This document shows positions 38,206 to 63,000 of a stretch of 64,000 nucleotides of DNA, in pieces. Every line of letters begins with the position of its first letter. The first letter of the stretch is position 1. The notes beneath the pieces were generated by a model. The model was given only the letters and a program-made list of their open reading frames with translations, made no database searches and had not been told where the DNA came from. The position numbers and the translations under genes are program-made. Source of the DNA: Lingula anatina (lineage: Eukaryota; Animalia; Brachiopoda); contig CM120648.1 in assembly GCA_051362555.1 (NCBI GenBank), positions 18,534,587 through 18,598,586 on the forward strand, given 5' to 3'.

Positions 38206-38366
38206 CTGTATTTATAGCAAAATGAACCCACAATTTCTGACTTCTAATTGAGCAATAAATAACAGTTTGTAGGTATATGGAGCAAGTGTTTATGTTACTG
38301 TGATCTCAAAGCTGCAGCACCAGAAGTGAACATAAAGTTTAGCAATCGCTGACAGAAATATTACAG

Positions 38367-39317
38367 GATCTACTGTCGGAATGGAAGCCATGTTAGGGCA
38401 GTCTAGACGAGGTGTAAATCCAAGATCAGGACAGGTGACAGTACAGACACAACCTCCATTAGCTGAACAGGAAACAAATACAACATCAGCTCCAAATCAA
38501 TTTGTATTCTTAGAGAAGGCAGAATGTGTGCGTTCCTTCAGTGCTAAACTGGAAGATGATAGAAGAGGAATATTCATAACTGGGTTAGCCATAGATAAGG
38601 AACACATGTTTGTTGTGGATATAGGAAACAACAGAACAAAAGTATTCACACATGAAGGACAATTTAAGTTTGACATTAAAGTAAACAAACCATGGGATGT
38701 GGCTGTGTCACAGACTGGTCACCTGTATATAACATCACCAGGTGACAGATGTGTCCAAGTGTACTCCACCAGAGGTCAGCAGGTGACAACCATGGGTCAG
38801 GGTCTACTGGAGTTACCACGGGGTATTACACTGAACAGACAAGGTCATGTGATGGTTTGTGACAGTGGGATAAAGAAGTTCATCTTGACATTCCATGCAG
38901 ACAGTGGACAGCTCCTGAACACTATTCCACTCAGTATGTGTGAATACCCAGAGTACATCACAGTGAACAGTGTGAATGATAACATTGTGATATCAGACGT
39001 GTGGGGACACTGTGTACATGTGCTGTCACCTACTGGTGATCATCTGTACCAGTATGACGGCAGCAGAGAAGGCAGTGAACTGAGTTATCCATGTGGAGTG
39101 TGCACAGACAGCTATGGTCACATCTTCATTGCTGACAGGTATAACCACAGTATAGTGGCACTGAGTCCACAGGGACAGTTTATCAGATACATTGTCACTG
39201 AGGATGATGGGTTGGAGTATCCCAATGCAGTAGTCATCAACCCTGCTACTGGTCAACTGGTGGTGGGAGAGATAGAGGGCAATGTTAAGACATTCCAGTA
39301 CATTGAACTGAAACAAG
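38367..39317 (+). CDS. NHL-repeat beta-propeller exon (TRIM2/3/71-like C-terminal domain), ORF 38381-39325
   Basis: Repeats ITGLAID, KPWDVAVS, LPRGITLN, YPEYITVN, YPCGVCTD..GHIFIAD, YPNAVVIN. Open for over 310 codons. Candidate phase-1 acceptor ttacag| at 38366 and strong donor AAG|GTGAGT after 39317. Confidence 0.9.
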
Positions 39318-40149
39318 GTGAGTAACATGTATAAACTGTGGATAAATATGATTATTATGTAAAAAATTAGAAAGTTTATTAGTTTTACAATGTTTTTATC
39401 CATGAATATGTTTGCCTTTATTTCAATAAAAAAAACTTTTAAGCAAATTTAAATTCAGTAAGCACACAGCTGTGCTTTAGTAAAAATGTATGTAGAGTGG
39501 AGACATTTTCTATAGTTAATACTTTACTGTTACTGACCAATTTCCATGAACCCATTATAGTGATTAGGATTTTGAATAAAGATAAAGAACTCTTTTTAAT
39601 GGAATTTATAGTATGCTTTATTTGTATTTTTATTAAGTCAGAAGAAAAACATCTTACATTGTTTAATCCCTGAACTTCTTGTCCATTTGTCAGTGAAGAA
39701 CAACTCAAGTCTCACAACAGAACAGTCCAATTCTTCATATTCTTCATCTTGTAGCTATTCATGAAAGCTTAGATATACCTAAATTCTCAAATGTACTTTG
39801 TCAAGTTTCTTGATGTCTTACCACTTCTAGATTCAAAGACATTTCATCACCAGTTTGTTGTTAACACACACAAATAAATTAAATGTTGAAGTACTTTGGA
39901 TGATACCTTATTTTCCTGACTTTGTGGATTGTTCTTTGCAAATAAAACTAGCAGACGACCATTTTTCATGAAATGGAACTACTTTTCACAGGAAGTAGTG
40001 TATTCATACACAACAGTGACCTTGGGTTTGGAATACAAAAAAATAGTACATGCATTCATACTGTCACAGCATGCAAATTATAATGAAATATACAAAACTA
40101 AACACATTTTTATGTAACACAAAAAGTTAAATGCATTTTTATTTATTTA

Positions 40150-40201
<52 letters not shown>

Positions 40202-40715
40202 CTGGATAAAAATGTTGATGAAATGGTTTTGACCACCTTTTTGGACTTTTTAAACTGCATGCTGATGGACCCACATATTTATGTCAAAGGCCAGGACCAA
40301 ATCTAGTCCCATGCATAAAAAGCCCAGACCCCATATGTTTATTATGCCCTGGCTGGGCCCATTCTTTATGCTGTTTGTATTGTTAACAGCATAATGGGCA
40401 AGTTAATTGACCAAGTTAATTGGCCAAGCTTATTGGCCAAGCTTCCAGTTTGTTTGTATGGCATGTGCAGGGGATGTCTTAGATCAAGGCGCATATTATG
40501 ATACCTATAGGTGTGGCAAATGAGATGTGCTTGTATTTCATTACCTGTAATTTGTAAAATACATCAGAGGATGATACTTTTAAAGCTGTTTAATGTTTAT
40601 ATTTAAAGACATGTGTGTCGTAGATTGATTTAGTAGCATTTACTAAAGAATTTAAGCACAACATTCGGAGCAGCAAGACATTTACTTTATGTGGACATCA
40701 AACAGAGGAGACATG

Positions 40716-41203
40716 GCAGATGTGTCTGTACATATTTATAACCTGTAAAAAAAATTGGTGATAATTATTCTGTAATTTATTATGTAATGTTACATCAACA
40801 AAAATCTTTTTGTGCTGCTACTACAAACATTATGAAAAGAAAACTTTGTTACTTATTATTATTTTTAACTTGCAAGTATGATCTTTAGGATTGGCATGCA
40901 GTTCAAATTTATTAGAAAGCCAGCTCAATTGGGTTATCATTTATTATTGAATTCATGCAATTTTGTGTGAAATTTTCATTTTTCTCATTCTGGCATTTTC
41001 AAAGTGTGAACTCCCATGGGCCTGAAGCCATATTCTTGTTACACATTTTACTTACATAGGTATTACCTGTTGAGCACAAAAATTTGATGTTGAATTTGCA
41101 GTTAAGCATAGTGTACTTTTGCATCAGAATTGACAGTAGCCTATTTTGTGCATTGTTATTGTCTGCTTTTTGTCTTTACATTTGACAGCTATGCTGCCTT
41201 GTT
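40716..41203 (+). mobile_element. Internally deleted Helentron-like copy
   Basis: Starts with CAGATGTGTCTGTACATAT, matches about 46030-46440, and ends TTTGACAGCTATGCTGCCTTGTT like the larger copies. Confidence 0.6.
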
Positions 41204-42179
41204 GTACCACCAGCGTTAGCGCTGGCGGTACACATGGTTTCGGTCCCGACCAGATCGTTCCGCCGGCTCCGCCGGACGGCTACCGTTACCGCTTCTCCTC
41301 CTAGACCATAAGGACCCCCATACCCATCTCTTGGATTTAGGTCACCTATAATCTCAACTCGTTCCACGTAAAATTTGGGCTTTGTCGGTATTGGGGTCTG
41401 GGTGTGGCACTCATTGCAATGCACCCTTGTCCAAAAATGGCAAAATTAAATGCTAATTATCTACCCTACGGAAGGGGTTATGGGAAAAATTTCTACAGAC
41501 GGCTTTCCAAAAGTCATATGTGTAGATTTCAAATATGCCCTTGGATTTGACCTTTGACCTTTACTTCAAGGTCAAACGGGCCAAAATTTTCAAAAAAATA
41601 AAAATTTTTACGAAAAAAAATTTTTTTTGCCCTGTTATTCAGACACCACACAGACTTAACCAATAATATTATTGGAAAGTGTTACCCTTCAGGTCATCTT
41701 TCATCTCCGTGAATTTGGGGTCAATCGGTGCATTTTCACGGGAGTAGCGACCATAAGATACCGAAACTGAAAACTGTCTCTAATTCGGGAACCGTTAATG
41801 CTAGAGACCCATTCTTTTTTGCATTTTGTAGAGCATGTAAAGCCCAACATTGGAAGTGGTCTCCGTTTTTTTGTATTCCATACGGTTTTTGAGTTACGCT
41901 GTATCAAAAAGTACATATTGGTAGTGAAAGCAAAATGTGCAGTACGGTAATGGATAATAAATTTTGAACTCCGGAAAAATAAAACATAAGGCTTGGCAAA
42001 GCAGACAACTTGTGGTCAAAAATGACATTATTTCATTAAATTTGAACTTTTGATACTTCAGAGCACCTCCCATTTCAAGAATTTTGACCTAAATGACCTT
42101 TTCTTTATATTAAAATTTAATTTTTTCTGTAGGAAATTTATGGCACATTATGGTAACTCCAAAATTACAACATTTAGTC

Positions 42180-43440
42180 CCTTATATCTCCAAAACTGGC
42201 AGAGATATGTCCATAGTTACTATTGAAGTTAAATAGGAAGTCATATACTGGCAATCTAAATGTGACCTTAAAATTGACCTTTGACCTACTTTTCACCATG
42301 AACTGAACTTGGCAAATTTTGCTTCCCTTTTATCTCCAAAACTGGCAGAGATAGGTCCATAGTTACTATTGAACTTGAATAGGAAGTCATATACTGGCAA
42401 TCTAAATGTGACCTTGAAATTGACCTTTGACCTACTTTTTATCATGAATTGAACTTTGCAAAATTGCTTCCCTTTTATCTCCAAAACTGGCAGAGATAGG
42501 TCCATAGTTGCTATTGAACTTGAAAGGGAAGTAATATCCTGGCAATCTAAATGTGACCTTGAAATTGACCTTTGACCTACTTTTCACCATGAACTGAACT
42601 TTGCAAATTTTGCTGCCCTTTTATCTCCAAAACTGGCAGAGATAGGTCCATAGTTACTATTGAACTTGAATAGGAAGTCATACACTGGCAATCTGAATGT
42701 GACCTTGAAATTGACCTTTGACTTACTTTTCACCATGAACTGAACTTTGCAAATTTTGCTGCCCTTTTATCTCCAAAACTGGCAGAGATAGGTCCATAGT
42801 TACTATTGAACTTGAATAGGAAGCAATCTGAATGTGACCTTGAAATTGACCTTTGACCTACTTTTCACCATGAACTGAACTTTGCAAATTTTGCTTCCCT
42901 TTTATCTCCAAAACTGGCAGAGATAGGTCCATAGTTACTATTGAACTTGAATAGGAAGTCATATACTGGCAATCTAAACGTGACTTTGAAATTGTCCTTT
43001 GACCTACTTTTCACCATGAACTGAACTTTGCAAATTTTGCTGTCCTTTTATCTCCAAAACTGGCAGAGATAGTTCCAAAGTTACTATTGAACTTGAATAG
43101 GAAGTCATACACTGGCAATCTTAATGTGACCTTTAAATTGACCTTTGACCTATTTTTTTATTATGAACTGAACTTTTCAAAATTTGCTTCCCTTTTATCT
43201 CCCAAACTGGCAGAGATAGGTCCAAAGTTACTATTGAAGTTGAATAGGAAGTCATATACTGGTAATCTTAATGTGACCTTAAAATTGACCTTTGACCTAC
43301 TTTTTACCATGTACTGAACTTTGCAAATTTTGCTTCCCTTTTATCTCCAAAACTGGCAGAGATAGGTCCATAGTTACTATTGAAGTTGAATAGGAAGTCA
43401 TATACTGGCAATCTTACTGTGAAATTAACCTTTCACCTAC
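42180..43440. repeat. 146-bp tandem array (about 8.5 copies) with Helentron/HINE-type core motifs
   Basis: Unit contains ATAGTTACTATTGAACTTGAATAGGAAGTCATAT and TGACCTTGAAATTGACCTTTGACC. Further copies at about 49320-49540. Confidence 0.9.
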
Positions 43441-43462
43441 CTTTTGATGAACTTTTGATATA

Positions 43463-46400
43463 TTTTTATGTACAGACACAGATGTGTCTGTACATATAGC
43501 CGTCATCTGCGTCTGTCATCGCCGTCGTCGCTGTCGCCGTCGCCATCGCCGTCGCCGTGCACTTTTACCAATAACACGATAAGTGGAAAACTGTTTTTTC
43601 TTTTGGCTTGAAACTTACAGAACTAATGAATATTCATAATACGCAGGTCAAGTTCGAAAATCAGCATGATCGGGTCACTTATAGGGAATTTATGCTGTTT
43701 TTTCACTTTTTTCAGCATAAATGAAGCACCGATAACACGATAAGTGAAAAACTGTTTTACTTTTTGGCTTGAAACTTACAGAACTGATGAATATTCATAA
43801 TACGCAGGTCAAGTTCGAAAACCAGCGTGATTGGGTCATTTTTAATGAATTTAGGCTATTTTTCTCTTTTTTCAGCATAAATGCAGCACCGATAACATGA
43901 TAAGTGGAAAACCATTTTACTTTTTGGCTTGAAACTTACAGAACTGATAAATATTCGTAATACGCAGCTCAAGTTCAAAAATCGGCATGATTGGGTCATT
44001 TTTTAGTGAATTTAGGCTATTTTTTCTCTTTTTTCAGCATATATATACAGCACCGATAACACGATAACTGGAAAACCGTTTTGGCTTTTGGCTTGAAACT
44101 TAGAGAACTGATAAATATTTATAATACGCAGGTCAAGTTCGAAAATCAGCATGATCGGGTGACTTGTAGGGAAGTTATGCTGTTTTTTTTTTTACTTTTT
44201 TCAGCATATATGCAGCACCGATAACAAGATAAGTGGAAAACAGCTTTACTTTTTGGCTTCAAACTTACAAAACTGATGAAGATTCATAATCCGCAGATCA
44301 AGTTCAAAAATCAGCATGATCAAGCCATTTTTAGGGGAGTTATGCTATTTTTTCACTTTTTTCAACATATATGCAACACTGATAACACTATATAAGAAAA
44401 ACAGATAGGCCAATTGTCATTATACTTACAGGAGTGGTCAATCTTACTAAAATGCAGGTTGAGTTGGAAAATCAGCATAATCTGGCCATTATTTTAGAAG
44501 TTATGCTGTTTTTTCACATTTCCTCAGATTCAATTCTTAAGCATGTTAACAGTCTCATTATTTAACTAATAAGATACGTAACAGTGTTTGTTTGATATTT
44601 CCTGCATCTTTACAACATTGTTAGTTGATTATGTAAAAATGATGGTAAACTTGATATTGTGTATTGTGTAATAAAGTGTCAAAAATGGAAATAAACTCAT
44701 ATCATATCATATTGCAGTTTGTTAGATTCAATCATCAACTATGTTCAGAATCTCAGAATGGAGGAAATTGGACATTTAACACTGTTCTATTGATATTTTT
44801 CCCATCTCATCAATTTTCTTAGTTGGTCATATAAAAATGGAAGTATACTGTTTATTTTGTTTTGTTTAAAAAGTGTTAAAATGGAAATAAACCCATTTCA
44901 GAACAGTGCTGTCTTTTTTTACAGTTTGGCATTTTTAAGATGTGACTTTGAAGTTCCATGAGCCTGCAGATCTTTGCTAGTCACATTTTCTGAATATCCA
45001 TGATACTAATATTTTATGATTAAAAAGTGATGGTCATTATGCTGTAAAACATTATGTAATATTGCATCAAAATTTGAAGAAACCCCTATATTGGGCACTG
45101 CTCCCATGATGACCATTTAAGGAAAGTCATGTCACTTACTGTTCTCAAACTTACAGGAAAGAAACATGGGACTAAAATACAGCTTCAGTAGGCAATGCAG
45201 TCTGTTTGGTAAATTTTTCTGGTAGTTAAGCAGTTTTTTTGTGAAAATTTAATTTTTCACATATTGGCATTTTCAATGTATGACTTTGAAGTTCCATGAT
45301 CCTGAAGACCTTTGCTTGTCACATTTTCTGAATATGCGTTATACTAATATTTTATAATTAAAAATTGATGGTCATTGTGCTGTTAAACATTATGTAATGT
45401 TGCATCAAAATTTGAAGAAACCCCTGTTTTGGGCACTGCTCCCATGATGACCATTTAAGGAAAATCGTGTCAATTACTGTTCTCAAACTTACAGGAAAGA
45501 AACATGGGTCTAAAATACAGCTTCAGTAGGCAATGCAGTCTGTTTGGTTAATTTTTCTGGCAATTAAACAGTTTTTTGTGAAAATGTAATTTTTCACATA
45601 TTGGCATTTCCAAGGTGTGACTTAGAACCTCCACGGGCTTGAAGACCCATGCTAGTCACATTTTCTGAAAATTCATGACACTTATATTTTATTATTAAAA
45701 ATCGATGGTCATTATGCCGTTAAGCATTATGTAATGTTGCATCAAAATAGAAGAAAACACAATTTTGGGTGCTGCTGCCTTGATGACCATTATGGGAAAA
45801 CTGTGTTACTTATGACTGTCAAACTTTCAAAAAAGAAACACAGGACTAAAATGCAGCCTGAGTTGGAAAAGCAGTCTAATTGGCTTCTTTTTCTGGAAGC
45901 TATACATTTTAGTGTAATATTCATTATCTTTTTGGCATATTCATTGTGGGACTCAGAGCTCCCATGAACATGAAGCCGAATGGTAATCATATTTTCTACA
46001 TGTCCATCCTATTTATAGTCAATAAACAAAAATTGGTGATAATTATTCTCTAATTTATTATGTAATGTTACATCAAAATTGACAACAATCTTTTTGCACT
46101 GCTACTGCAAACATTATGAAAAGAAAACTGTGCTACTTATTATCATTTTTAACTTACAAGTACGATTTTTAGGATTGGCCTTCAGCTCATATGAGAAAAC
46201 CAGCTCTATTGGATTATCATTTTTATTGAATTTATGCATTTTTTGTGAAATTTTCATTTTTCTCATTCTGGCACTTTCTAAGTATAAACTTGAACTCCGA
46301 TGGGCCTGAAGCCTTATGCTTTTAATTTCGTCTGTGTTACCTGTTGTGCATAAGTTGATGTTGACTGTGCAGTTAAACATAATGTATTATTGCATCAGGA

Positions 46401-47550
46401 TTGGTAGTCTCCTATTTTGGGCATTATGGTTTTGTGCTTTTCTTAAAGTGTGACTTATGGGCCTAAAGACCTTTGAGTGGGTCAGTCTGTAAATTACCCT
46501 TGGGTATCACTAGATTAATTTCAGAGTTATAAAGTCATTTGCCTTAATAGGCCATTAAATGAGATTACATAAAGCACACTTGTTGATATTTCCCTGTAAA
46601 CTCCCAAAGGTAAAGCTCTCTGCTAGATTAATAATAAGGAAGCAGTGATAATTATGCAGGTAAATTTTGTTTAATATTGCAAATAAGTTTTAAATAATAT
46701 ATATATATATATATCAAACTGGAAGATTAAAAGTTTGAATAGCATCTTCATTGGAATTAAATTTACCTCAAGCTCTGCCAAGGAGGTCATATTTTCACCC
46801 CCATTTGTCTGTCATCCACATAACACAAAAAGTTATGGACTGATTTTGCAGAAATTTTCAGGAACTGTCGGAAGTGGGCCAAAGGGGACAATGATTAATT
46901 TTTGGTGGTGGTCTGGAACAATAATCAATCAATTATCAATAATAATCAACAATTGCTGCCTTGGCAGAGGTCTGCACTCTCAAAGTGCTTTTCTAGCTTT
47001 GTTATGTTTTCCTTTATAATTTTTTCTCAAACACTTGCATTTGTGACTTTTAACTCTCATCTGCCTGGGGCTCTGCACATTTTCTGTATTTCCACATAAG
47101 CAGTTGTATTGTTTTTTATGTCTTTAAACATGTATTATTATTTTATGCACTGTCATCATTTTTCAAATATTGAGAGTTTCATAATGTGAATTTGAACTCT
47201 CATGGTCCTGAATCTGTAATTTTATTGAAGGGGTGGACCATCTTCTGGGTCTTCCTGAAGACAGTCAGGTTATTAAGTTTATATTGACTGGTATGTATTT
47301 TTTCTGTTGGAAGACCATCAAAATGGTGGATGGATCAACATAGATACTTTGGAATACTGTCAGAAAATATCTCTGGGTCCGCTCCTGTTATTGACCATGT
47401 TACCTGTTGTGCAAGATTAAAATTCAGTGTTGACTGACAGTGCTATTATAAGCATTATTTATTATTGCATCAAAATTGACAAAATGACCTTTTTTGCATC
47501 TTTATTTTCTGTTTTTTGTCTGTACATTTGACAGCTTTGCTGCCTTGTTT
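43463..47550 (+). mobile_element. Non-autonomous Helentron-like element with internal 161-bp tandem repeats
   Basis: T-rich start, palindrome TGTACAGACACAGATGTGTCTGTACA, (GTCGCC)n, 161-bp units, and a 3' subterminal TGTCTGTACA followed by TTTGACAGCTTTGCTGCCTTGTT. Confidence 0.75.
46763..46998 (+). mobile_element. Short nested Helentron-like MITE (second copy about 54570-54755)
   Basis: CTCTGCCAAGGAGGT...CCTTGGCAGAGGTCTGCACTCT subterminal inverted repeat. Confidence 0.6.
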
Positions 47551-49670
47551 TGCATATTTTGAAAATTCTTGTTGATTGCATTTTTACAGCTTGTCAAGCA
47601 AAAGACTGGTGGCTGTGTCCCTTATTTTGTGTATGTAGGGGTCTATACGAATGCGCTTGCTCCAGCTGGTGGTACAATATTCGGAGGCGGTATCACCTCT
47701 CTGATCCTCTAGTTTACCCTTATCTTTGGATGCTGTGTTTTCACTCAATGCACATGTGCCAGTGTATGAATGGATTTGAAGTTAGTCATAATTTCTTGAT
47801 ATTTCCAATTCCTCTTGTTCAACTTCAGGTATTTTCATTGGTGTTTGTATTTTGGTCTGTTATTACTTGAGCGTGATGCTGAGAATGATTGACTGATGAT
47901 GAAGACAAAAGAATGAGTTCGCACACTTTATATGATATCTCTATTGCACTGTTTATTTTCATACAGCATACTCTAATTATGATTTTACATTAAAGAAGTG
48001 CTTTAAATGTCATTCGAACATTGGAATTACTGTAATTTTTTGTTTTTGATGTGCAAGAAGTTTGAAAAGCACCAGAAAAATGGGATAGGTATTTTTGTTA
48101 TAACAACCAACACAATAATTAGCTTCCAAAATTGTAATTCTCTTATTATATCTGTCCATAATTGTTTCATTTAAGCTTTCCTACTTGTACATGTCTTGTT
48201 CTTCAGACTGCATATTCAGTTGAGATTTTTTACTGAGAATGAAAAAAGTATGTCTGTGACCATAATGTAACAACGAACACCAAATTTAGCTTCTACTGGT
48301 TGCAAAGAGCAGTGTATGTGTGCACTGTTGTGTCATTGCTTTGTATATTGGTACAAGATCTAGAAAAAATACATGTGATCTGTTCTCAGACAAACTGTGT
48401 AGCTTCCAGGTGTATTTTAGTGCTCATAAGTATGTCCATTCTTAAGATGTAACAACCAACACCAACATTGTTATTTTCCTGTGTTCATTCACAGTGTATT
48501 TCCAACTGATGCTTGTTTTCTGTCAAAAGGGTTGACATAAATTTGAATACATACTAAATGAAAGTCATGTAGGTGTGTTTTCTTGTTTATTTTTAAAAGT
48601 TTGAATGTGTGGAAGGGTTGATTGTTACGCCGGACATACCACAACATGCAAATATTTACAGAAATTATTTCTCATGGCAATTTTTGCATTGTATATCCCC
48701 TAAGGATAGCTTTCTTTTCAAATTAAATGTTAAGATTACTCCCAACAATTATTTCTTCATTGCACAGGAGCTGTATTTGTATGTCCGGCGTAACAACCAA
48801 CACCAAGCTGTCTCATCAGCTATTTCTAGCTGCTATATCTCAAAAACCTGCTGATGAGTTATCTTTTTATATGCAGGGTAACACTCTTAAAACAGCACAC
48901 TTTCAGTACCACTAGCTGTGACACCTGAAAAAGCATGTCTAGTTTTGGTCCTTTTAGTTATCTTTTGCCACGACATTTTGTCACATGCTCATATACATAT
49001 GTTTGTGCCAATTTTTAGAAACTACACCGACCTAAGTGGGGGGATTACATTTTGGGACTTCATCTTCGGGAGTTTGGGGTCAATTGGTGCATTTTCACAG
49101 GAAAAGCAGCCGTTAGATGCCAAAGCTGAAAACTCTCTATTAAACCCGAACCCTAAATACAAGAACCTCTTGTTTTTTGCATTACGTAGAGCTTGTCAAG
49201 CTCAATTAATACTGGGGTTGGAATCCATTTTTTTTTGTTTGTTTTTGATATGTAGGTTAGGAGTTGTGCTATATAAAAAAGTACATTTCAATTTTCAGTA
49301 GTGAAGCAAAATGTGAAATACTCAAAAACTGGCAGAGATACACCCATGGTTACTATTGACCTTGAATAAGAAGTCACATACTGGCAGCCAAACTGTGACC
49401 TTGAAATTGACCTTTGACCTACTTTTCATCATGTACTAAGTCTTGCAAATTTTTTGCCTCTTTTATCTGCAAAAATGACAGAGATACACTTATAGTTACT
49501 ATTGACCTTGAATAGGAAGTCATATACTGGCAATCTTACATTACGCCGCTTTGTAATCTGGAACATAGTCGATCTTACACGTCAGAATTTGTGTGCAAAT
49601 CGACTTTGTGATTTACATGATAAATGTCTTTATACTTCACTTCGTTCTTCAGCAGTGATTCAGTATCCAG

Positions 49671-50357
49671 GGGCCGGTTTCACAAAGCAGTAGTTAGTTA
49701 GCCATCGGTAGTTAGCCTCTCGCTAGTTATAGTGCCATTTCACGAAGCAGTCGCTATTTCTTTGCTCGTTATTGTCTCGTTGTTGTCTTGGATATTTAAC
49801 GACTGGTCAGACCAGTCGCTAACTCTAGAGTTTCATCGTACGCATGCGTAATGAGTGAAATAAAAAGGTTGCTTAGTTACCGTTGTCTGTCGTTTGTCTT
49901 TGTATCCAATATGGCGGCTACTTTTTTTTGTTATCCGTACCGCCAGACGGCAACGTAGACTACAACGTTTTCATGAAAGGCAGAATCTATTAGAATATAC
50001 ACACGATGATGCAATTTACGAGAGGTTGCGCCGAGCTGTGACAAAAAGAGCGGCAAAAAGGTGGCGGAGATCCTTTACGACGACCTCAAAGCAGACGTTC
50101 TTATGCATTTCCAGCCACCAAAAATTGGAGAGTTAGTGCTTTTGTGACACTTTTACGCAAGATTTCCACTTCCGGCAGACGGTTTCGAGACTACGGTGAG
50201 TAACGAGAGAACTAACGACCGAACTTTACGACTGAACTTAGCGATGAGTTAACGACTGCTTCGTGAAACACCTCTCGAAAATCGCAAAATTTGCTCGTTA
50301 GCGAGGTAGTTCAGTAGTTAGTTGTTCTAACTAACTACTGCTTTGTGAAACCGGCCC
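49671..50357. mobile_element. Non-autonomous Harbinger element, 687 bp
   Basis: Perfect TIR GGGCCGGTTTCACAAAGCAGTAGTTAGTTAG at both ends and a 3-bp TSD CAG on both sides. Confidence 0.9.
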
Positions 50358-50371
50358 CAGATTACACACCC

Positions 50372-53300
50372 TTTTTATGTACAGACACAGATGTGTCTGT
50401 ACATATAGCCATCATCTGCGTCTGTCGTCGCCGTCGCCGTCGCCGTCGTCGCTGTCATCGCCGTCGTCGCCGTCGTCGCCGTCGCCGTGCACTTTTACCG
50501 ATAACACGATAAATGGAAAACTGTTTTTTCTTTTGGTATGAAACTTACAGAACTGATGAATATTCATAATACGCAGGTCAAGTTCGAAAATCAGCATAAT
50601 CGGGTCACTTTTAGGGAATTTATGCTGTTTTTTCACTTTTTTCAGCATATATGCAGCACTGATAACACGATAAGTGGAAAACCATTTTACCTTTTGACTT
50701 GAAACTTACAAAACTGATGAATATTCATAATACGCAGGTCAAGTTCGAAAATCAGCATGATCGGGTCACTTTTAGGGAATTTATGCTGTTTTTTCACTTT
50801 TTTCAGCATATATGCAGCACCGATAACACGATAAGTGAAAAACCATTTTACCTTTTGGCTTGAAAGTTACAGAACTGATGAATATTCATAATACGCAGGT
50901 CAAGTTCGAAAATCAGCATGATCGGGTCACTTTTAGGGAATTTATGCTGTTTTTTCACTTTTTTCAGCATATATGCAGCACCGATAACACAATAAGTGAA
51001 AAACCATTTTACCTTTTGGCTTGAAAGTTACAGAACTGATGAATATTCATAATACGCAGGTCAAGTTTGAAAATCAGCATGATCGGGTCATTTTTAGGGA
51101 ATTTATGCTGTTTTTTCACTTTTTTCAGCATATATGCAACCCCGATAACACGATAAGTGGAAAACCATCCTACCTTTTGGCTTGAAACTTACAAAACTGA
51201 TTAATATTCATAATACACAGGTTAAGTTAGAAAATCAGCATGATTGGGTCATTTTTAGGGAATTTATGCTGTTTTTTCACTATTTTTCAGCATATATGCA
51301 GCACCGATAACACCATAAGTGGAAAACCAATTTACCTTTTGGCTTGAAACTTGTAGAACTGATAAATATTCATAATACGCAAGTCAAGTTCGAAAATCAG
51401 CATGATTCGATTATTGTTAGGGAATTTATGCTGTTTTTTCACTTTTTTCAGCATATATGCAGCACTGATAACACAATAAGTGGAAAACTGTTTTTTCATT
51501 TGGCTTGAAACTTACAGAACTAATGAATATTCATAATACGCAGGTCAAGTTTGAAAATCAGCAAGATCGGGCAATTTTTATGGAAGTTATCCTGTTTTTT
51601 TTTTTTTTTGTTTTTTTTTCAATTTTTTCAGCACTTTTATAACACCGATAACATGATAAGTGTAAGAATGTTTGTCCTTTTCTTGGATTGAAATTTACAG
51701 AACTGGTGAATATTTATTATACGCAGGTCAAGTTTGAAAATTGGCATGATTGGACTATTTTTACAAAAGTAATGCTGTTTTTTTCCCTTTATTCAGCATA
51801 CATGCAACACTGATAACGCATTTTAAGGAAAACCAATCAGCCTTTTGTCTTGCAACTCACAGGAGTGATCAATCTGACCAGTATACAGATCAAGTTTGAA
51901 AATAAGCTTGATCAGTTAAGTTTTGATGAAGTTATTAGCCTTTTTGTATATAAGTGGTTTTTCTTCAGATTTAATTCTTAAGCATGTTAACAGTCTCATA
52001 ACGGTACTAATTGGATATGTTAAAGTGTTGTTTTAACATTTTCTGCTTCTTAACAATATTGTTAGTTGATTATATAAAAATGACGGTAAACCTATTATCC
52101 TGCATTGTGTAATAAAGTATCAAAAATGGAAAGGAACTCATCATTGCAGTTCATCAGATTCAATCATTCACTATGTTCAGAATCTCCAAATGGAGCTAAT
52201 TGGACATTATAAATTGTTCTATTGATATTTTTCCTATGTCAACAATTTTCCTAGTTGATCATTTAAAAATGACAGTTAATTGATGATGGTTTTATGTAAA
52301 AAAGGTGTTGAAAATGGAAAGAAAATCATTTCAGTACAGTTATCTCTTGTTAACATTTTGGCATTTTGAAAGTGTGACCCTAACTTCCATGTCCTTGGAG
52401 ACCTTTCCATATCACATTTTCTGAATATCCATGATACTTTTATTTTTTTATAAAAAATTTGATGGTCATTATGCTGTTAAGTATTATGTTATATTGCATG
52501 AAAGTTAAAGAAAACCCTATTTTGGACACTGCTGCCAGGATAGCGATTAAGGGAAAACCATGTTACTTATGATAATCAACCTTACTGAAAAGAGTGAAGT
52601 GCAGCTTGTGTTGGAAAACCATCGTAATTGTTTTCTGTTTTGAAAGCAATGCAGTACAGTGCTATTTGGTGCAATAAATGTATATGGATAGTAGGCAGTT
52701 AATTCAGGGTTATAAAATAATTTGCTTAATTGATTTTCAAGTTATTTCAGGGTTATAAAATAATTTGCTTAATTAATTTTCAAGTGGGTATTAAATGAGA
52801 TTACATAAACACACATTGAGATTTCATTGTAAAGTCCCATCGGTTTAGCTTTCTTAACTGTGTCACATAATTAGGAATCGATGATTATTATGCAGGTAAA
52901 TGTTATTTAATATGGAAAATAAGTTTACAAAAAAAAATTTGTGTAACGCTTACATTATAATGCTAAAGATGAATAACAGTGCCTTATTATTCTCAAACTC
53001 AATAGGGTTATTCATATCATGTTAGTAATTGTACAGCTAGATTAAAAGTTTGAATAGCAGCTTTATTGGTATTTTTTGTTATGTTTTATTTTACATTTTC
53101 TTTTAATTTTTTTATGCTGTTTTTTCACTTTTTTCAACATATATGCAACATTAATAACACAATATAAGAAAAACAGCTTAGCCAATTGTCATTATACTCA
53201 CAGGAGTGGTCAATCTTACAAAAATGCAGGTTGAGTTCGAAAATCAGTGTTATCGGGCCATTATTTTAGAAGTTGTACTGTTTTTTCAAATTTCCTCAGA

Positions 53301-54447
53301 TTCAATTCTTAGGCATGTTAACAGTCTCATTATTGAACTAATAAGATATGTAAAAGTGTGTGTTTGATATTTCCTGCATCTTTACAACATTGTTAGTTGA
53401 TTATGTAAAAATGATGGTAAACTTGTTATCATGTATTGTGTAATCAAGTGTCCAAAACGGAAATAAACTCATATCATTGCAGTTTGTCAGATTCAATCAT
53501 CCACATCTGCCATGATGACCATGATGGGAAAACCGTGTTCGTTATGATTGTCAAACTTTCAAAAAAGAAACACAGGACTAAAATGCAGCCCAAGTTGGAA
53601 AAGCAGTCTAATGGGCTTCTTTTTCTGGAAGTTATTCATTTTAGTGAAATATTCATTATCTTTTTGGCATATTCATTGTGGGACTCGGAGCTCCCATGGA
53701 CATGAAGCCGGATGGTAATCAAATTTTCTACATGTTCATGCTATTTATAGTCAATAATCAAAAATTGGTGATAATTATTCTATAATTTATTATGTAATGT
53801 TACATCAAAATTGACAATAATCTTTTTGCACTGCTACTGCAAACATTATGAAAAGAAAACTGTGTTATTTATTATTATATTTAACTTAAGAGTATGATTT
53901 TTAGGATCGGCATGCAGTTCAAATTAGAAAGCCAGGTCAATTGGGTTATCATTTATTATTGAATTTAATGCAATTTTGTGTGAAATTTCATTTTTCTCAT
54001 TCTGGCACTTTTTAAGTATAAACTTGAACTCTGATGGGCCTGAAGCCTTATGCTTTTACTCTCATTGGTGTTACCTGTTGTGCAAAATTAAAATTTGATG
54101 TTGACTGTACAGTTAAACATAATGTATTATTGCATCAGAAGTGGTAGTCTCCTATTTTGTGCATTATTGTTTTGTGCTCTTCTTAAGTTGTGACTTATGG
54201 GCCTGAAAGACCTTTGAGAGGGTCAGTCTATAAATTTCCCTTGGGTATCACTTCGCTAATTTCAGTTATAAAGTAATTTGCCTAATTGATAGGCTACATA
54301 AAGCACACTTGTGATTTGAGATTACATAAAGCACACTTGTTGATATTTCCCTGTAAACTCCCATAGGTTAAGCTCTCTGCTAGATTAATAATAAGGAAGC
54401 AGTGATAATTATGCAGGTAAATTTTGTTTAATATTGCAAATAAGTTT

Positions 54448-54524
<77 letters not shown>

Positions 54525-55319
54525 AACTGAAAGATTAAAAGTTTGAATAGCAGCTTCATTGGAATTATATTTACCTCTGCCAAGGAGGTTATATTTTCAC
54601 CCCTGTTTGTCATCAACATAACTCAAAAAGTTATGGACCGATTTTGCTGAAATTTTCAGGAACTGTCAGAAGTGGGCCAAAGAGGACAAAAATCAATAAT
54701 AATCAACAATTGCTACCTTGGCAGAGGTCTGCACTCTCGGAGTGCTTTTCTAGTTTTGTTGTTTTCCTTTATAATTTTTTCTCAAACACTTGCATTTGTG
54801 ACAACTCTCATCCGCCTGAGACTCTGACATTTCTGTTTTTCCACATAAGCAGTTGTATTGTTTTTTATGTCTTTAAACATTATGTTACTTATGTAATATT
54901 ATTTTATGCACTGTCATCATTTTTCAAATATTGAGACTTACATCATGTGAATTTGAACTCTCATGGTCCTGAAACTGTAATCTTATTGAAAGGGTAGATT
55001 GAGACCATCTTCTGGGACTTCCGGAAGACAGTCAGGTTATTAAGTTTATATTGCCTGGTATCTATTTTTTCTTCTGTTGGAAGACCATCAAAATGGAGGA
55101 TGGATCAAAATAGATACTTTGGAATACTGTCAGAAAATATCTCTGGGTCCGCTCATGTTATTGACCATTTTACCTGTTGTGCATGATTAAAATTCAGTGT
55201 TGACTGACAGTGCTATTATAAGCATTATTTATTATTGCATCAAAATTGACAAAATGACCTATTTTGCATCTTTATTTTCTGTTTTTTGTCTGTACATTTG
55301 ACAGCTTTGCTGCCTTGTT
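50372..55319 (+). mobile_element. Second long Helentron-like copy with about 9 x 161-bp repeats
   Basis: Same 5' palindrome and (GTCGCC)n head and same 3' end as 43463-47550. About 53500-55319 is a close copy of about 45770-47550. Confidence 0.75.
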
Positions 55320-56286
55320 ATCTATCTAGATCTATTTTACTCAAAGTTTGTTTTACCCTGATATAAATAACGCACCATAGTATTTTTGGGAATTTCTCAA
55401 TTCAGTTGAATTCAAAATTTTTTATTGAGCTGCGATGTAACGACTTTTGTCATCGTGAAAATGTAAGATTTTACCTAACACACTAATACCCAATGCATTT
55501 TCCATTTGAAAAAAAAAAAAAAAAAACATTTCCACCAATTTAGAGTAGGTACGAGGGAGTTTTTGTGCAGGGATGGAGCAATAAGGGGGAGTATCGGTGC
55601 AGGAAAATATAAGTACAGGAAGTATTGGTGCGGGAAATTTAAACTGTGACGTACCTTATACACATATAGGTACTGGGAATTGTCGGCACGGGGGTTGTAT
55701 AGGTACGGAGGAGTATTTGTGCGGGGACTTAAAGCACAGGGGAGTATCGATCAAGGGACATACACAGATAGGTAGGGAGAGAATTGGTGCCGGGGTGTAT
55801 AAGGTATGCTGCCGTTTAGTAGCAGTAGCGAAAGTGTACCAGTATTATGTTAAAAATTTGACGTTGTGACAGGAAAGGTAGTTTTAATGGGTGGATTCAA
55901 ACATGGTCGTATAGGCACGATCTGTACATATTTCTGTAACATACATTGAGAACTCCAATAACCTTTTCCCAGCCTATTTTATCTTGATATTATCCTCCTC
56001 TGTGCTGCTCCTTCATTTACTGTTTAAATTCACTTCCTTTCTTGAATGCCACTCCTTCCATCATCTCAGCATCATCATTTAGACATAGCTGTTCAGTCTT
56101 GCTACTACTCACCTCCATCCTGTTACTCTCAAGCACATATGCAGGCATCCACCTCTCTAGATTTTCTCTCGCTTCCTCTCTGCTATTGCTTCACAATAAA
56201 TATAACATCTGCAAACATCATCATTCACCTTATCCATAATCCATGAGTCCTTTTGTCAATGTGAAGCATCACATTTGTATTACCAG

Positions 56287-56517
56287 GTGAGTTTAATGAA
56301 CGGCTTCGCCGATTGTGTGAAAGTGGTAAGATTCCAGTATACCGACAGCGAGTAGCTATTGTTGGACCTTACGGTGTGGGAAAGACTCATCTCGCCAAGC
56401 GCCTCATCCATGAGGAATATATCAAAGAAGAAGATGCAAATACAACTGGCGTGAATATATACCGCCATAGGTGTGTTGTCCATAAAGCTGGCCGATCCTG
56501 TTGGATCAGAGGAAAAG
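56287..56517 (+). CDS. Roc (ROCO-family) GTPase N-terminal exon, G1/G2 boxes
   Basis: taccag|...|gtaagc, 231 nt, phase 1-1. Reads EFNERLRRLCESGKIPVYRQRVAIVGPYGVGKTHLAKRLIHEEYIKEEDANTTGVNIYRHRCVV..W. The GxxxxGKT, TxGV and GxxxxYxxRxxxVG lead-in are typical of invertebrate Roc-COR proteins. Confidence 0.8.
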
Positions 56518-56849
56518 GTAAGCAGAATAAAGGAAAACATTTGACACATATGGAATTTGTTTATAAAGAATACGAAGAACAGCAGATAAGACATTTTCAA
56601 TTTTACCGCATAACCCACAATAAGGAATTATACATACGTGTACATGTGGGTGTCGAAATGTGTCCTTCCCTATCTTAGTATGGTAGACGAGGGGCTGAGT
56701 GAAATAGCACCTAAATAAGTGGTGCCTTTGTATTGTTATCAATCAATTGACATACATGACGCTTTACAATCTACTCCTACAGCCCATTGATTATTTTTTA
56801 ACTGGGTATAAACACGATAATTTCATTCTCTGTAAAAACACCATGCTTT

Positions 56850-57335
56850 ATTATGTACAGACACAGATGTGTCTGTACATATAGCCATCATCTGCGTCCG
56901 TCGTCGCCGTCGTCGCCGTCGCCATGCACTTTTACCGATAACACGATAAGTGGAAAACCATTTTACCTTTTGACTTGAAACTTGCAGAACTGATGAATAT
57001 TCATAATACGCAGGTCAAGTTCGAAAATCAGCATGATCGGGTCACTTTTAGGGAATTTATGCTGTTTTTTCACTTTTTTCAGCATATATGCAGCACCGAT
57101 AACACGATAAGTGGAAAACCATTTTACCTTTTGCCTTGAAACTTGCAGAACTGATGAATATTCATAATACGCAGGTCAAGTTTGAAAATCAGCATGATCG
57201 GGTCACTTTTAGGGAATTTATGCTGTTTTTTCACTTTTTTCAGCATATATGCAGCACCGATAACACGATAAGTGGAAAACCATTTTACCTTTTGACTTGA
57301 AACTTACAGAACTGATGAATATTCATAATACGCAG
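56850..57335 (+). mobile_element. 5' part of the Helentron-like family (about 2.5 x 161-bp units)
   Basis: Same palindromic head and repeat unit, truncated at about 57335. Confidence 0.8.
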
Positions 57336-57336
57336 T

Positions 57337-57654
57337 ATGGAACGCCATTCACGCAAAAAATGCAGACGTCAATTCAACAATCTATCGTCACTATTTAACA
57401 ACCAAAACCTACTTTAACTATCTAAACTTAATTCTACTAAATTAGTTTTGGTCATTTTAATCATTCGTCAAAATCTAACAATCAATAATAACGATTCAAA
57501 AGTCAATTACCGCAACTCAACAATCAGTCACCGCAACTCAACAATCAGTTATCGCAACTCAACAATCAGTTACTGCAAACGGTCATTCGCGGACTTAACA
57601 CCAGATGGCGCGCGCGCACCGTCAGCGATCTGAAACGTCCTTGACCTTTTCCAT
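57337..57654. repeat. Repeat of about 310 bp present in inverted orientation at about 63692-64000
   Basis: CGCCATTCACGCAAAAAATGCAGACGTCAA ... CACCGTCAGCGATCTGAAACGTCCTTGACCTTTTCCAT, with its reverse complement at the window end. Confidence 0.8.
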
Positions 57655-57989
57655 CGTTTTAACAGTATTAAAATACGTGGTGCCTCGATTTGAAACCATT
57701 CAGCTTAAATTGTGTTTTTAATCTCCAAATACTTAAAAAAATCAATAAAGCTAATCGACAAGAACCTATTATATTGTATCTTTTATATTAATTATTATTA
57801 CATATCACAATAATAAACGAGTCGCCTTTTGATGTACGCCCGGCTATAACCTCTATTAAAAAATATCAATTTTTATGAGATTCGTATTGTTTGGTTCCAT
57901 TGCCTCGCTTTCAAAAATTAGAACAGGCGCTCCAAAATCGTAAGATGAAGTTAAAATTTTTATATTGGCCGAGTTCGCCACCGACTAGA

Positions 57990-59713
57990 ATGCCGATACA
58001 CCCCCACTGATACTCCCGCGTACCAATACTCCACAAAAACACTACTCCCCAAAGCAAAGATTCCCTGGGCTTTGTAGACACAAATCGTGATTCAAAACCC
58101 TTTCTATTATGCTATTTTTTTCAAAGTTGCACAACCCTCTTGGGACATATAATTGACACATTTTATTCGAAATATATTGGGGAAAATAAAGGGCGTTACT
58201 CGAAGTCGATCTCAGACTTTGCGTGCAGCTTAACAGTCCGTAGGCCTACAGCTATGCCTTGTAAATTTGAGAAATGTTTGTGCAAAATTAATATTGTTCT
58301 CCTACTGTAGTTACCGTATTTATATTATACGCCCTTTTATTTATTTACTTAAGGCAAAGTTAGTTTTAATCTAAGATGACGCAGCTATGTCTTTTCCTCA
58401 GGCAACGATGATTTTGTTTAATTATTAAATAATAAAAAAGCAGTGCTAAAGCGCTTCGTTTTCTGTTATCTTCCTCCAACCTTCTTTTCTGCTCTTAAAC
58501 TTCTTTCCCTTGTCTTTTGGAGGCATATTAGAATCTGAATTGAGCAAAATTCAAAATTTTTGAAAATTGTTGGACAACGAAATTGTAGAGACACGAGCAT
58601 GCGTCGTGAGCACACCTTTTATTCTCGCAGTCCCGCCGTGTTTTCGACTTACTTCGTCATAGATGTGAGGGCGTGCGCCGTACTCAACACGCAAAGGGCA
58701 CTTTCTCTTTCATTGCTTGCGACGTGCATCTTGGACCACGCAAGTCTCACTTGCAAACTCCTCGCAAACTCCTTGCGAGGGAGCAAGTTACGCTTGTGGC
58801 CTCGCTGTTTAAAGATTATTTAAACAGCGAGGCCGCAAGCGTAACTTGAGATTATTTGTAGAATAAAGCGTAACAAAGATTATTTGTAGAATCTATTGGA
58901 AATGTTTAGTATCCTCCGTACGTGCTTACATACGTGCGAACTCGAAATTTCGCATAAAGGACTTGCGTGGCACGTGAGATTCTCCGCAAAATTTGGACTC
59001 AAACGGGTCGTAAGAGCCCGTGCGGCCGGTTGTGACCGAGACTAATGTGTTGTCGCCCAAGATTTTTTAGGAACTTTGCGGCTTCTTTTGTATAATACCG
59101 ATGCTCAATTGTAAGCAATTAAGATTTGTATGCACTGCGCAATAGCATAAAAACAACATCACCAAGGATCTCCCTGTGGCCATTATTTTTTTCACTTATC
59201 TCACCAATATCCAAAGCGTTTTTCCATTTGAAAAAAGTATTTCTTATACAATGTAGGCCGTGCTTCCGAGTAGTTGACCAATTTTTCAAATCTATATGTG
59301 AAAAAAATCGATGCAAGGTGACAGACTCTCCCATGATAGACAGTCCGGTTCCCAACAATTTGCATATAGGTAATTCAGCCCCGCCCTAGATTTTGACCCA
59401 CTTTCGTCGATTGACCCTAACCTGTAGCCTATAATTAAATGGATGGATGACTCTCCGTTACCCAGACCCTCAGTTTCGTGGAAATTGCATAGGGGGAGTA
59501 ATAATGCGGGGAGTAGGGCCTATCGTTGCGGGGGAGTAACGGTGCGCGTATAGGCCTAACGGCAATTCTAGAGGGGATTTATCGATGCGGGGATCTATCG
59601 GAGTGAGGTTGTATCGACGTGCATAATGCAAAAATTTACTAAGGGGAAGTATCGGTGCGGGGGAGTATTAGTACGGGGGAGTATTGGTGCGGGGGAGTAT
59701 CGGCATGACCCCC
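57990..59713. mobile_element. Non-autonomous element with repetitive GGGGGAGTATCGGTGC termini (Mutator-like?)
   Basis: ATGCCGATACACCCCC... on the left and ...GGGGGAGTATCGGCAT on the right, CTAGAAT near both ends. Related motifs at 55585-55800. Confidence 0.45.
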
Positions 59714-60092
59714 TAGAATATCCTCACAGCATTATCTGCAATTTTTTAATGTATTTTGCAATATAATTTTCATTCCTCCCGATGATTAATTTTATTAATC
59801 AAGAGTGGGGGAGGGGTGGAAAATCCCCTTGGTGCCACATATAACACTATAAATGCGAAAGGAATTACCCTATTTGTGAAGAGAAAATAAATGTATTTGT
59901 TTATTTCAAACAGCGTACTTTTCGCGCATGCGCAGTAGTTTGAGACCTGTGCTATTCCGCATATTATTCGAGTAGGAACTACATGTGGTTCATTGCCATA
60001 TCTTATTTCAGTATGATGTGATTGAACGCAATCCTACTATTATATACTTAACTATATCATGACAATACGAACACGATGAACCACATGTACTC

Positions 60093-63000
60093 CAGCCATT
60101 CCACGAAAAGGGGTACAATTCCAAAACAAGAAATGCAGCGATATGAACTTTGCAAAACTGGAAAACTTTTTATATTATTTTGATGAAGAGGTATTCAGAA
60201 AGTAGTAGAAGAATTTTAACCCACACCATTACTGTATTTAAAGAAATATGCACGTGTAAACATGGTACAGTATTTTTTTCGTTACGGAGGTTAGGTAACA
60301 TCTAAATTAGGTTATATTTCAATCATGCCAAAGGTCACAGGCTCCATATTTGATTCAATTATTAAGAATTTGTATGTATTCAAAATATTATTGCCCATTA
60401 AAGATTTCTCTTCAATTATAGAAAATGCGGTGCAAACACATTGGTAATAAGTGGCTCGTTTTCTATAAATACAAAGGCTGAGATATTCCAATTTAAATAT
60501 TTTATTAATCGTTGGGGACAGACTTGCTTTTTTATCATACTATTTGTTTATGAACAAAGTGCTATCAATCTATTATGATATTAGCATTGATCAATGAGCA
60601 CACACATATCCAGTGTTCAAATGAAAAAGGAGTAATTTCGTAACGGAGGTTAGGTCATTCTACATAGGTCAGCGATCATATATTTGTTTTGATATTTTTA
60701 GCTTAAGGTAGACTTTAGAAGATGAATTCGGAATTTAAAGTATTACAGATACGACAAATTTACATAATAACATAGAAAAATTGATAAAACATGTTTATTC
60801 AAACCATTAAATGGCAAATGGTTACAACGGGTTGTTTTGCTTACTTTCAAGGACTTCATAAATACATTTACCACTAATGGATACATTTCACTGCTAATAT
60901 GTTGATCTATGTATCTGTAGAATTCACATTCCATCTTTTACCAGAGTAAGAGTTTAATTTATAATCTTAGTAACAGAGGTAAGGTAAAACTCTAGTCTAA
61001 ATTATGTCATACATGTACATTTAAACCGTTCAAAATCTTTCACAAGAAAAGCTTCACGGTCATTAGATTTTTTTCTTTCTCTGTAGTGTTTTTGTCGCTC
61101 TGTATTTGTTAGTGGCACATTGGTGTCTGTATAACAAAACATTAAACCTACATGCACATGATCGCAGTTAGGCCACACTTTTTTATTTTTATGGATGACA
61201 TCCTCTGGGGACCCCAAAATCGGTGCGAGCGGGCGAAAAAAAAAAAAAACTGCTTAAGAAAAGTTATGTTTTCAGTACACAGCTGGAAACACTAATTTAC
61301 CACAGAAACACGTATCAAACTAACAACATGTCTTTATCCATGCTCTCAAAATATTAAAGCATTGTGAATAGGGTCTACTTCGTAGAAAGGTAAAAAGTCA
61401 TGAATATATATATGCTGCATATTACCAAATCTATTTAAGGTTATTTCATGCATTCTGTTGGTATAGCAATCAATAAAACAAATATCAAATAAACAGTCTT
61501 TATTTGTACTCTCAGAAAATTTAAGCATTGTGAACACTTCACAGAATTGTTAAAAAATGAAGCAAAGATAGGCCTATGCTTCCTACTACCAAATCTAAAA
61601 AAGGTAATTTCGGTCGATGCCATTTTTTCTACTTCGACTCACACGTAGCAGCCAACTATTGGGTGGCCTGTCCGACCTTCAGTCCACCAAATACCAAGAC
61701 GCTCTTGTCGACCCTTTTTTCGCTACAAAAAAAAACCTGGTAAGCCTATGTGCTGCTTTGGACAGAATGTCACTGAAATTTTCCGGGCGATGATCGCTGG
61801 CCGCGGCCAGCCTTTCGTATAATTGTAAAAAGGTGATATCTCCATGTCCAATATCAATGGCAAACCAATCCAAAACGACGGCCCCCGTTCTCTTTATGAC
61901 TTTAATTGTCGTGTATTTTGAAATTAATGCTAGAGATGAATTTGACGGCAAAGTGGCCATATTTCCACGTGGTGATAATACGCATGCGCAGAAAGCTCAT
62001 TTTCCGCACTCGGAACTGCTCGGATGTCTCCACAGTCGACAATGACAGCATGGAGCTTGCGGAATTAGCCGAGGATTGCCGATTGCATTTTCCGGCAAAT
62101 TCAATAACGACGTTTGCGACAACCGACTTCTTTGGGGGGGGGGGGAGGGGGGGATTTTTTTTTTTTTTTTTTTTTTGGAGAACGGACGAAAATCGGTGCG
62201 CGCGCAGGATGTCATCCATAAAATTAAAAAAGTGTGGCCTTATAGGCAATAAAAACAACAAAATACCCGAGAAAGTTAATGCATACAATCAAGTAGGCCG
62301 ACAATAGACACGTGTTTGCCAATAACTGTCCATTTAAAGTAACTGGAAGCATCTAGAAGATGATAAAAACAATTATGTGCTACTGAAATAGTAAAATAGG
62401 ACCTAATAATCCCGCAGTTCTACCTGATAAATGTAACTGTAGCTTCAATGCTTAATATATTTCGCCATGTGTCTCCCGCGAAAATAATGTCTGCTACATG
62501 CACGTTAGTACTGATGTCAGCTAGTACCATTTTTCTTGCAAAGACAGTCCTGAAAACTACTCATTTCGCTTAAAATCAGAATGATAAGTTCAAAAAGGCA
62601 TCGTCAAGTGACAAACGGAAATCAATTCGATAAAACAAATCGCGATTTACCCTCGATTTCATAGCAAACTGGAGTAAAAAACTTAGATCATTAGCCTTTC
62701 TTGATAGAATTATCAGCTATATATGTATATTTTATATCTATATTAATGCGGGGTAATGTCTTTAACAGCAAGCAGTATGAATGCATACTACATCAGAACA
62801 TAGAAGTAGAACTATTTATATGATCCGAATTAACTCACAAAACCACAGAAATAACGTTTTGAAGTATTAACAGTCATTTTTATAACAATTAACTTATTTC
62901 GTAACGGAGGTTAGCATAACGGACGTAAGGTGACACGCATTCTTTTTCAGTTTTTATCCTCGGGAAAACTTTGCATAACTATTGAATGAATTTTTTAGGA

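Follow-up and report, generated by a model that had tools for sequence, protein, structure and literature searches.

An NHL beta-propeller exon spliced to a Roc GTPase exon in the brachiopod Lingula anatina: opening exons of a candidate immune receptor gene

Prokaryotic LRR-AP-GTPase(Roc)-COR-effector proteins, in which LRR stands for leucine-rich repeats, have been proposed on predictive grounds to be sensors that counter invaders (Kaur et al. 2021, PMC8195603), and the LRR-ROCO proteins of brown algae are candidate immune receptors (PMC11378527). ROCO-TIR proteins have been noted in Aplysia (PMC9334734), and the NHL propellers of Brat, Lin41 and Mei-P26 have a positively charged top surface that binds RNA (PMC9070667); these papers, like the others given below by PMC number, are cited from a part of their text. 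Here we describe a gene in a stretch of 64,000 nucleotides from Lingula anatina (GenBank assembly GCA_051362555.1, contig CM120648.1, positions 18,534,587 to 18,598,586 of the forward strand; called the window, in whose own numbering all positions are given), in which an exon coding for an NHL beta-propeller is spliced to an exon that begins a Roc GTPase. We favour, with moderate confidence, the reading that a Lingula-type NHL-Roc gene opens with these two exons and that its product would be an intracellular immune receptor working by a sensor-switch-effector mechanism. Beyond the original prediction, which was made from the DNA letters and had proposed the fusion of the two exons, we find that the gene is one of several copies in a family whose end modules are swapped, and that a similar build occurs in freshwater mussels.

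The splice between the NHL and Roc exons

Both exons lie on the plus strand. Exon 1 (38267..39317), delimited by read depth, loose read ends, the Pfam NHL match, AlphaFold2 and Foldseek, holds a 5' untranslated region from at least 38267 and the coding sequence 38381-39317, whose product of 312 amino acids is a six-bladed NHL propeller behind a disordered leader of 40 amino acids. The surrounding open reading frame (38336-39325) scores 66.6 bits against a Pfam NHL cut-off of 20, and its homology to TRIM proteins begins at 38369. Exon 2 (56287..56517; 231 bp, phase 1-1) scores 28.0 bits against a Pfam Roc cut-off of 27, is 97-99% identical to three L. anatina RefSeq models and has both of its splice sites in use. 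Its translation contains the G1 and G2 motifs of Roco proteins, namely the P-loop GPYGVGKT (56364..56387), which recurs in the paralogues P0006 and P0007, and the switch I threonine region TTG (56442..56450), located with the help of a motif scan of P0006. Between the exons lies intron 1 (39318..56286; 16,969 bp), with a donor GT at 39318 and an acceptor AG at 56285-56286, both in phase 1. The two domains and their canonical, in-phase join are thus where the original prediction had put them. Its proposed acceptor, with the NHL exon starting at 38367, did not hold, as 49 reads of RNA run X4 continue through 38366, transcription extends to at least 38267, and the start codon at 38381..38383 is the one used in the RefSeq paralogues.

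Nine raw RNA runs labelled as the same species were found, six of which were mapped (X1, X2, X4, X5, X7 and X8; 6-26% of each); X4 and X5 belong to one study, and the runs stem from individuals other than the sequenced one. The proposed junction of 39317 with 56287 is seen in reads from both sides. On the NHL side, seven X4 reads come loose behind 39323, and their consensus matches 56293-56322 and nowhere else; the offset of six letters from 39317 arises because intron 1 and the Roc exon both begin with GTGAGT. On the Roc side, 11 X4 and 9 X5 reads come loose before exon 2 with a 30-nt consensus that is the end of the NHL exon. Agreement among the junction reads is 0.69-0.85 (0.74 and 0.85 on the Roc side). 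The Roc donor at 56517 is also in use, as 31 X4 and 9 X5 reads join it to the next exon known from the paralogues P0004 and P0006; no such exon is present in the window, so that intron 2 (56518..64000) leaves it. The exclusion of hidden intronic exons rests on the direct junction reads and on tblastn, which found no NHL, Roc, COR or TRIM exon in the 64-kb window besides these two. We regard the NHL-Roc fusion as practically certain, and the splice is shown for the gene family and for the sequence of this exon pair, the exact haplotype aside.

Some further features of the two exons were observed. Exon 2 opens with a donor-like hexamer, AG|GTGAGT (56287-56292), identical to the start of intron 1. 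Skipping of this exon would preserve the frame and delete the P-loop, and none was seen among the reads listed. The 5' untranslated region contains two in-frame upstream ATGs and a short upstream open reading frame of 8 codons (38277-38303), and an 87-bp fragment that is common to other transcripts, with reads loose on both sides, adjoins the 5' end of the NHL exon at 38180-38266.

Origin, mobility and variation of the NHL exon

AlphaFold2 models the exon 1 product as a propeller of six blades, in which the first strand closes the ring, with a mean predicted local distance difference test (pLDDT) score of 89 that rises to about 98 over the blades, and the best Foldseek matches of the model are the NHL domains of TRIM2 and TRIM3 (expectation value about 1e-19). 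The exon is 59-68% identical to the NHL domains of the Lingula TRIM proteins tested, and in an NHL tree the 11 rows of its family form a clade (support 99) nested among Lingula RING-B-box-NHL genes (96), in keeping with the TRIM-type origin that had been proposed. The start methionine of the gene aligns with a leucine in the linker of Lingula TRIM-NHL proteins, which makes a TRIM copy that had lost its 5' part the likely source of the gene. The window, in which eight TRIM proteins match in tblastn via their NHL part only, shows neither a RING nor a B-box or a coiled coil, and the weak P-loop scores of the window for NACHT (14.7 of 26.7) and NB-ARC (13 of 23.5) stay under the Pfam cut-offs. The gene is neither a TRIM nor an NLR.

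Twelve Lingula models, some of which may be alleles, carry the NHL exon, and wherever it is joined to another exon the join is at one and the same position. Two continue into the Roc type found here (type A) and three into a distant Roc (type B), two of these being complete through COR; in another two the exon precedes a tail that is not Roc and scores weakly for CARD, and five have it alone or are partial. The idea of phase-1 exon shuffling is borne out by these different partners, and on sequence comparison the NHL exon is a mobile unit. This copy and the type-B model P0193 are 88% identical in the NHL but 44% over 54 amino acids in the exons that hold G1, so that movement or conversion of the NHL followed the split of the Roc types. 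Ongoing swapping between Roc types is not shown, since the approximately unbiased (AU) test rejected neither a type-B clade (p 0.075) nor a type-A clade (p 0.21) in the NHL tree. A type A plus type B NHL clade was rejected (p 3e-8), which counts as weak evidence because the N-termini of three type-A clade members are unknown.

Variation among the copies is concentrated on one side of the propeller. The DA and BC loops of a propeller form its top face. Among nine paralogous NHL exons, 28 of the 73 DA- and BC-loop positions have at least three residues as against none of the 53 AB- and CD-loop positions (Fisher p 2e-8), with loops defined from the strands of the AlphaFold2 model and with indels in some loops that may inflate the variable count. 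The ratio of top to bottom entropy is 35 in this family; 14 Lingula TRIM-NHLs give 2.4, and 12 distant NHLs give 1.0, the last value being lowered by saturation. The NHL of this copy is 86-90% identical to its RefSeq paralogues and has top-face residues of its own. Where RNA reads differ from the window within the NHL coding sequence, the change is non-synonymous for 26 of 27 bases and for all 21 codons, as against 77% expected for random changes; in the Roc exon this applies to 3 of 8 bases and to 2 of 6 codons (X4 and X5; Fisher p 0.0009 against the NHL), although these counts come from the 40 best-supported of 85 differences and are indicative, not a formal ratio of non-synonymous to synonymous rates (dN/dS). 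By residue count, which is not an electrostatic map, the top loops of this copy have 10 lysines or arginines and 16 aspartates or glutamates, and no consistent basic excess is found at these loops across 11 paralogues. The NHL propeller, known as a conserved reader of RNA, thus appears here as a diversified recognition surface. About 30 TRIM-NHL-like RefSeq models (P0133-P0162) form a Lingula expansion whose top face is also more variable (the ratio of 2.4 above), and this expansion is possibly a sensor repertoire of TRIM type.

Roc-COR relatives, rival explanations and a proposed mechanism

The RefSeq models P0004 and P0006 show the same NHL-Roc join as this copy, and P0006, whose next exon is the one joined to 56517 by reads, carries the motifs G1 to G4, including WDFAGQ and IIGTHKD. 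Over 141 amino acids the second half of P0006 shares 96% identity with P0011, a model of Roc-COR-HEPN type that carries an RNxxxH motif as well as a hydrophobic tail. COR follows Roc in P0011 as well as in the NHL-bearing P0193 and P0332, which are full NHL-Roc-COR models with type B Roc. In a quick tree of 42 Roc-COR rows, from which P0021, P0047 and P0049 were dropped as they had no G3 match and which carries long-branch warnings, the models of the Roc type found here fall into a Lingula-only Roc clade (100% in the Shimodaira-Hasegawa-like approximate likelihood ratio test, SH-aLRT) with the Roc-COR-caspase P0009, the Roc-COR-HEPN P0010 and the HEPN-Roc-COR P0007. A scan of 24 relatives found caspase, Death, CARD, TIR, HEPN or trypsin, in most cases behind the core, and NHL, Macro, Bcl-2, CARD or HEPN before it. 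From these comparisons the gene probably belongs to the Roco family, and its product is predicted to continue, likely, into COR and a caspase or HEPN ribonuclease effector; no G3-G5 or COR exon of this copy was found in the window by tblastn, and the next exon and the effector would lie beyond 64000. Some of the annotations may be incomplete. The NHL-only P0132 and the Roc-COR model P0016, both on contigs of 242,707, are possibly split annotations of a longer gene, and the same may be true of P0333, a caspase fragment with an accession adjacent to that of P0011 and an equally long contig.

Several observations weigh against the immune-receptor reading or against its application to this copy. 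The COR and effector of this copy fall outside the window, and in P0193 and P0332 Pfam shows no effector behind COR. Most reads are 95-99% like the window, and every covering X4 and X7 read differs from it at 38880 and 38887, so that the expressed reads represent other alleles or paralogues; furthermore, the NHL-Roc junction is absent among the loose ends listed for X1, X2, X7 and X8. Upstream of 38267, 66 reads (42 from X4 and 24 from X7) depart from the window sequence, which means that the 5' end of this copy differs from that of the expressed copies. The indicative nature of the read differences noted above also belongs here, as does the fact that the immune role, although likely, is drawn from sequence, predicted fold and variation. 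Finally, one bacterial Roco forms dimers with GDP and becomes a monomer with GTP (PMC5714945), so either nucleotide state could fire a dimer-dependent effector.

One explanation of the read differences is that the architecture is real in the family while this copy, a duplicate that is silent or truncated at its 5' end, had its upstream sequence replaced at 38266/38267. The departing reads upstream of 38267 would fit such a replacement, as would the transcript-shared fragment that abuts this point and a 25-nt motif from the upstream sequence of the expressed copies, which the window does not contain even when 3 mismatches are allowed; the window letters at 38880 and 38887 occur in no X4 or X7 read. 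However, the reading frame is open in both exons, the three splice sites all follow the canonical pattern, the 30-nt consensus of the junction reads is identical to the exon end in the window, and 59 of the 118 X4 reads that cover the Roc stretch are at least 99% alike. As the runs come from other individuals, mismatches are expected in a hypervariable family, and we consider a silent duplicate unlikely. Another alternative is that the NHL frame is a stand-alone gene ending at its TAA (39323..39325, intronic in the spliced transcript), with the Roc exon belonging to another transcript. Four RefSeq models (P0127, P0128, P0130 and P0132) do stop just past the donor, the intronic sequence directly before the Roc exon is covered by four to six X4 reads, and the polyadenylation signal AATAAA that the original prediction had placed at about 39424 is present at 39425-39430. 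Nevertheless, the signal shows no sign of use, since read depth is zero across 39370-39603 in all four of four runs, which leaves a 3' end here unsupported and the fusion standing. The short models stop 2-11 residues past the donor, as read-through annotations would, and together with the junction reads from both sides this largely refutes the existence of two genes, to which we give hardly any credence.

The remaining alternatives accept the fusion and concern what it recognizes. A variable recognition switch could be driven by a cause other than pathogens, such as self/non-self discrimination, gamete recognition or transposon control, as diversification on one face signals an arms race or balancing selection and not its cause. 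The protein, however, is predicted to be cytosolic with a disordered leader, and its sister genes hold modules that are typical of immunity (caspase, HEPN, Death, CARD and TIR), so that we find a non-pathogen driver improbable, only slightly more so than the silent duplicate. The product might instead bind and regulate the animal's own mRNAs in the manner of Brat or LIN-41, with a GTPase added. The fold matches the NHL of TRIM2/3, Brat and TRIM71, the top surfaces of Brat, Lin41 and Mei-P26 bind RNA as cited above, and a HEPN end would fit an RNA target. The NHLs of Brat, Lin41 and Mei-P26 are, on the other hand, strongly positive on top, whereas acidic residues outnumber basic ones here, and a regulator of host RNA would be expected to keep its top face conserved; this we hold to be quite improbable.

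The immune-receptor reading follows the pattern of innate immune receptors because a conserved GTPase core is combined with a diversifying head and swappable death or nuclease tails. In the proposed mechanism the top face of each copy would bind a different foreign ligand, more likely a protein or other non-RNA ligand than RNA because the top face shows no basic excess by residue count. Ligand binding would shift the nucleotide state of Roc-COR and its balance between monomer and dimer, and this shift would switch on the caspase or HEPN effector, leading to cell death or RNA decay. Caspase or HEPN effectors need two copies to act. That the GTP cycle of this protein serves as the switch is inferred by analogy, and the overall working would be NLR-like with the order reversed and a GTPase replacing the ATPase. 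The immune sensor-switch of the original prediction therefore keeps its status as an inference, now with one-face hypervariability behind it. What activates Roco GTPases is unresolved even for LRRK2, and a natural family whose ligand-binding head varies and whose caspase or RNase output can be read directly makes Roco activation testable.

Window features and comparison with known systems

Repeats found within the window cover 67% of intron 1 compared with 21% of the rest, in agreement with the expectation of a mostly repetitive intron, and include arrays of 146, 161 and 338 bp. A 146-bp tandem array of 8.6 copies occupies 42178..43445, and a 1.8-kb block at 45775..47549 is duplicated at 53507-55319 (86% identity), inside the same intron. 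An element made of a 28-bp palindrome, (CGTCGC)n and 161-bp units lies at 43463..44521, with further copies at 50372-51935 and 56848-57335; the three hold 2.5-7 units each and presumably resemble non-autonomous Helitron-type elements with internal arrays. Elsewhere, the window contains a chitin-binding peritrophin-A exon on the plus strand (374-784; Pfam CBM_14, E 8.5e-10), a Tc1/mariner-type transposase remnant on the plus strand (2431-2895; DDE_3), a short-chain dehydrogenase exon on the minus strand (10491-10802; Pfam adh_short) and a coding-like open frame of 121 amino acids on the plus strand (24676-25041) with no Pfam match at E 0.1.

The architecture is already in databases as unnamed models, and no describing paper was found in the literature searched, a search that most subscription papers lie outside; the expectation that it was undescribed therefore holds for this literature, and in RefSeq the architecture exists only in models named 'uncharacterized'. 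The Lingula models LOC106151306 (XP_013379953.1) and LOC106159696 (XP_023930482.1) have the same NHL exon, start and join to the same Roc type, and LOC106168600 (XP_013403180.1) and LOC106163476 (XP_013396530.1) have the same NHL exon and start and are complete NHL-Roc-COR models. All four are named 'uncharacterized'; the type-A ones are truncated, and the complete ones have the distant Roc type and no recognised effector. In the portions of text available, a Roco review does not contain 'NHL' or 'propeller' (PMC6337361), and neither the Aplysia source (PMC9334734) nor the brown-algal one (PMC11378527) mentions NHL. The ESM Atlas returned mollusc Roc-COR(-HEPN) and bacterial WD40-Roc clusters and no NHL family.

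The nearest build in other animals is that of unionid mussels, whose hypothetical proteins KAL3892357.1, KAK3576896.1 and KAK3598550.1 have an N-terminal NHL-like propeller, Roc-COR and a C-terminal HEPN, TIR or Death domain. A profile of the Lingula NHL matched 8 of 124 Roc-COR relatives, all of them unionid models. These fall in clades apart from Lingula in both the Roc-COR and the NHL tree, and a single clade of unionid and Lingula genes is rejected (AU p 8e-49), so that the unionid build is likely an independent second origin, although long branches advise caution. Five unionid propeller-Roc-COR models (P0027, P0029, P0039, P0041 and P0023) were seen to end in HEPN, TIR or Death. In Owenia fusiformis a caspase with a ROC pro-domain provides a Roc-caspase fusion in a lophotrochozoan, with no NHL mentioned in the accessible part of the report (Horkan et al. 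2024, PMC11463336), and the Owenia Roc-CORs are placed in a clade other than that of Lingula; APAF-1 was not detected in Lingula in that source. We tentatively suggest, and rate as somewhat less probable than not, a combinatorial Lingula receptor system in which a mobile TRIM-NHL-derived exon with an antibody-like diversified face plugs in phase 1 onto Roc-COR-caspase or -HEPN switches and replaces the apoptosome and NLRs, with the mussels converging independently.

TRIM-NHL proteins (TRIM2/3, Brat, LIN-41/TRIM71 and Mei-P26) share the six-bladed NHL fold, but the Lingula gene is without RING, B-box and coiled coil, its NHL is N-terminal, and the top of the propeller is hypervariable and, by residue count, without a basic excess. 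The likeness to NLR and other STAND proteins is one of working only, with no NACHT or NB-ARC core above cut-off, and the findings as a whole point to a GTPase-based, NLR-like class of immune receptors in lophotrochozoans. In the brown-algal ROCO genes, as here, the N-terminal sensor is shuffled and its likely binding face is under diversifying selection (PMC11378527); there a single LRR per exon is shuffled, whereas in Lingula the whole propeller is in one exon and would move as a unit. The term 'NHL' is absent from the main text of Kaur et al. (PMC8195603), and the matches listed from the supplement (12 of 13 supplementary files) are stretches of sequence. The proteins described there nevertheless resemble the Lingula family in their fast-evolving N-terminal repeat sensor, Roc-COR core and several paralogues per genome, and their swappable C-terminal effectors (TIR, caspase and trypsin) have a counterpart in the caspase and HEPN ends across the Lingula Roc clade; they are bacterial and sense with an LRR, where the Lingula gene has an NHL propeller instead.

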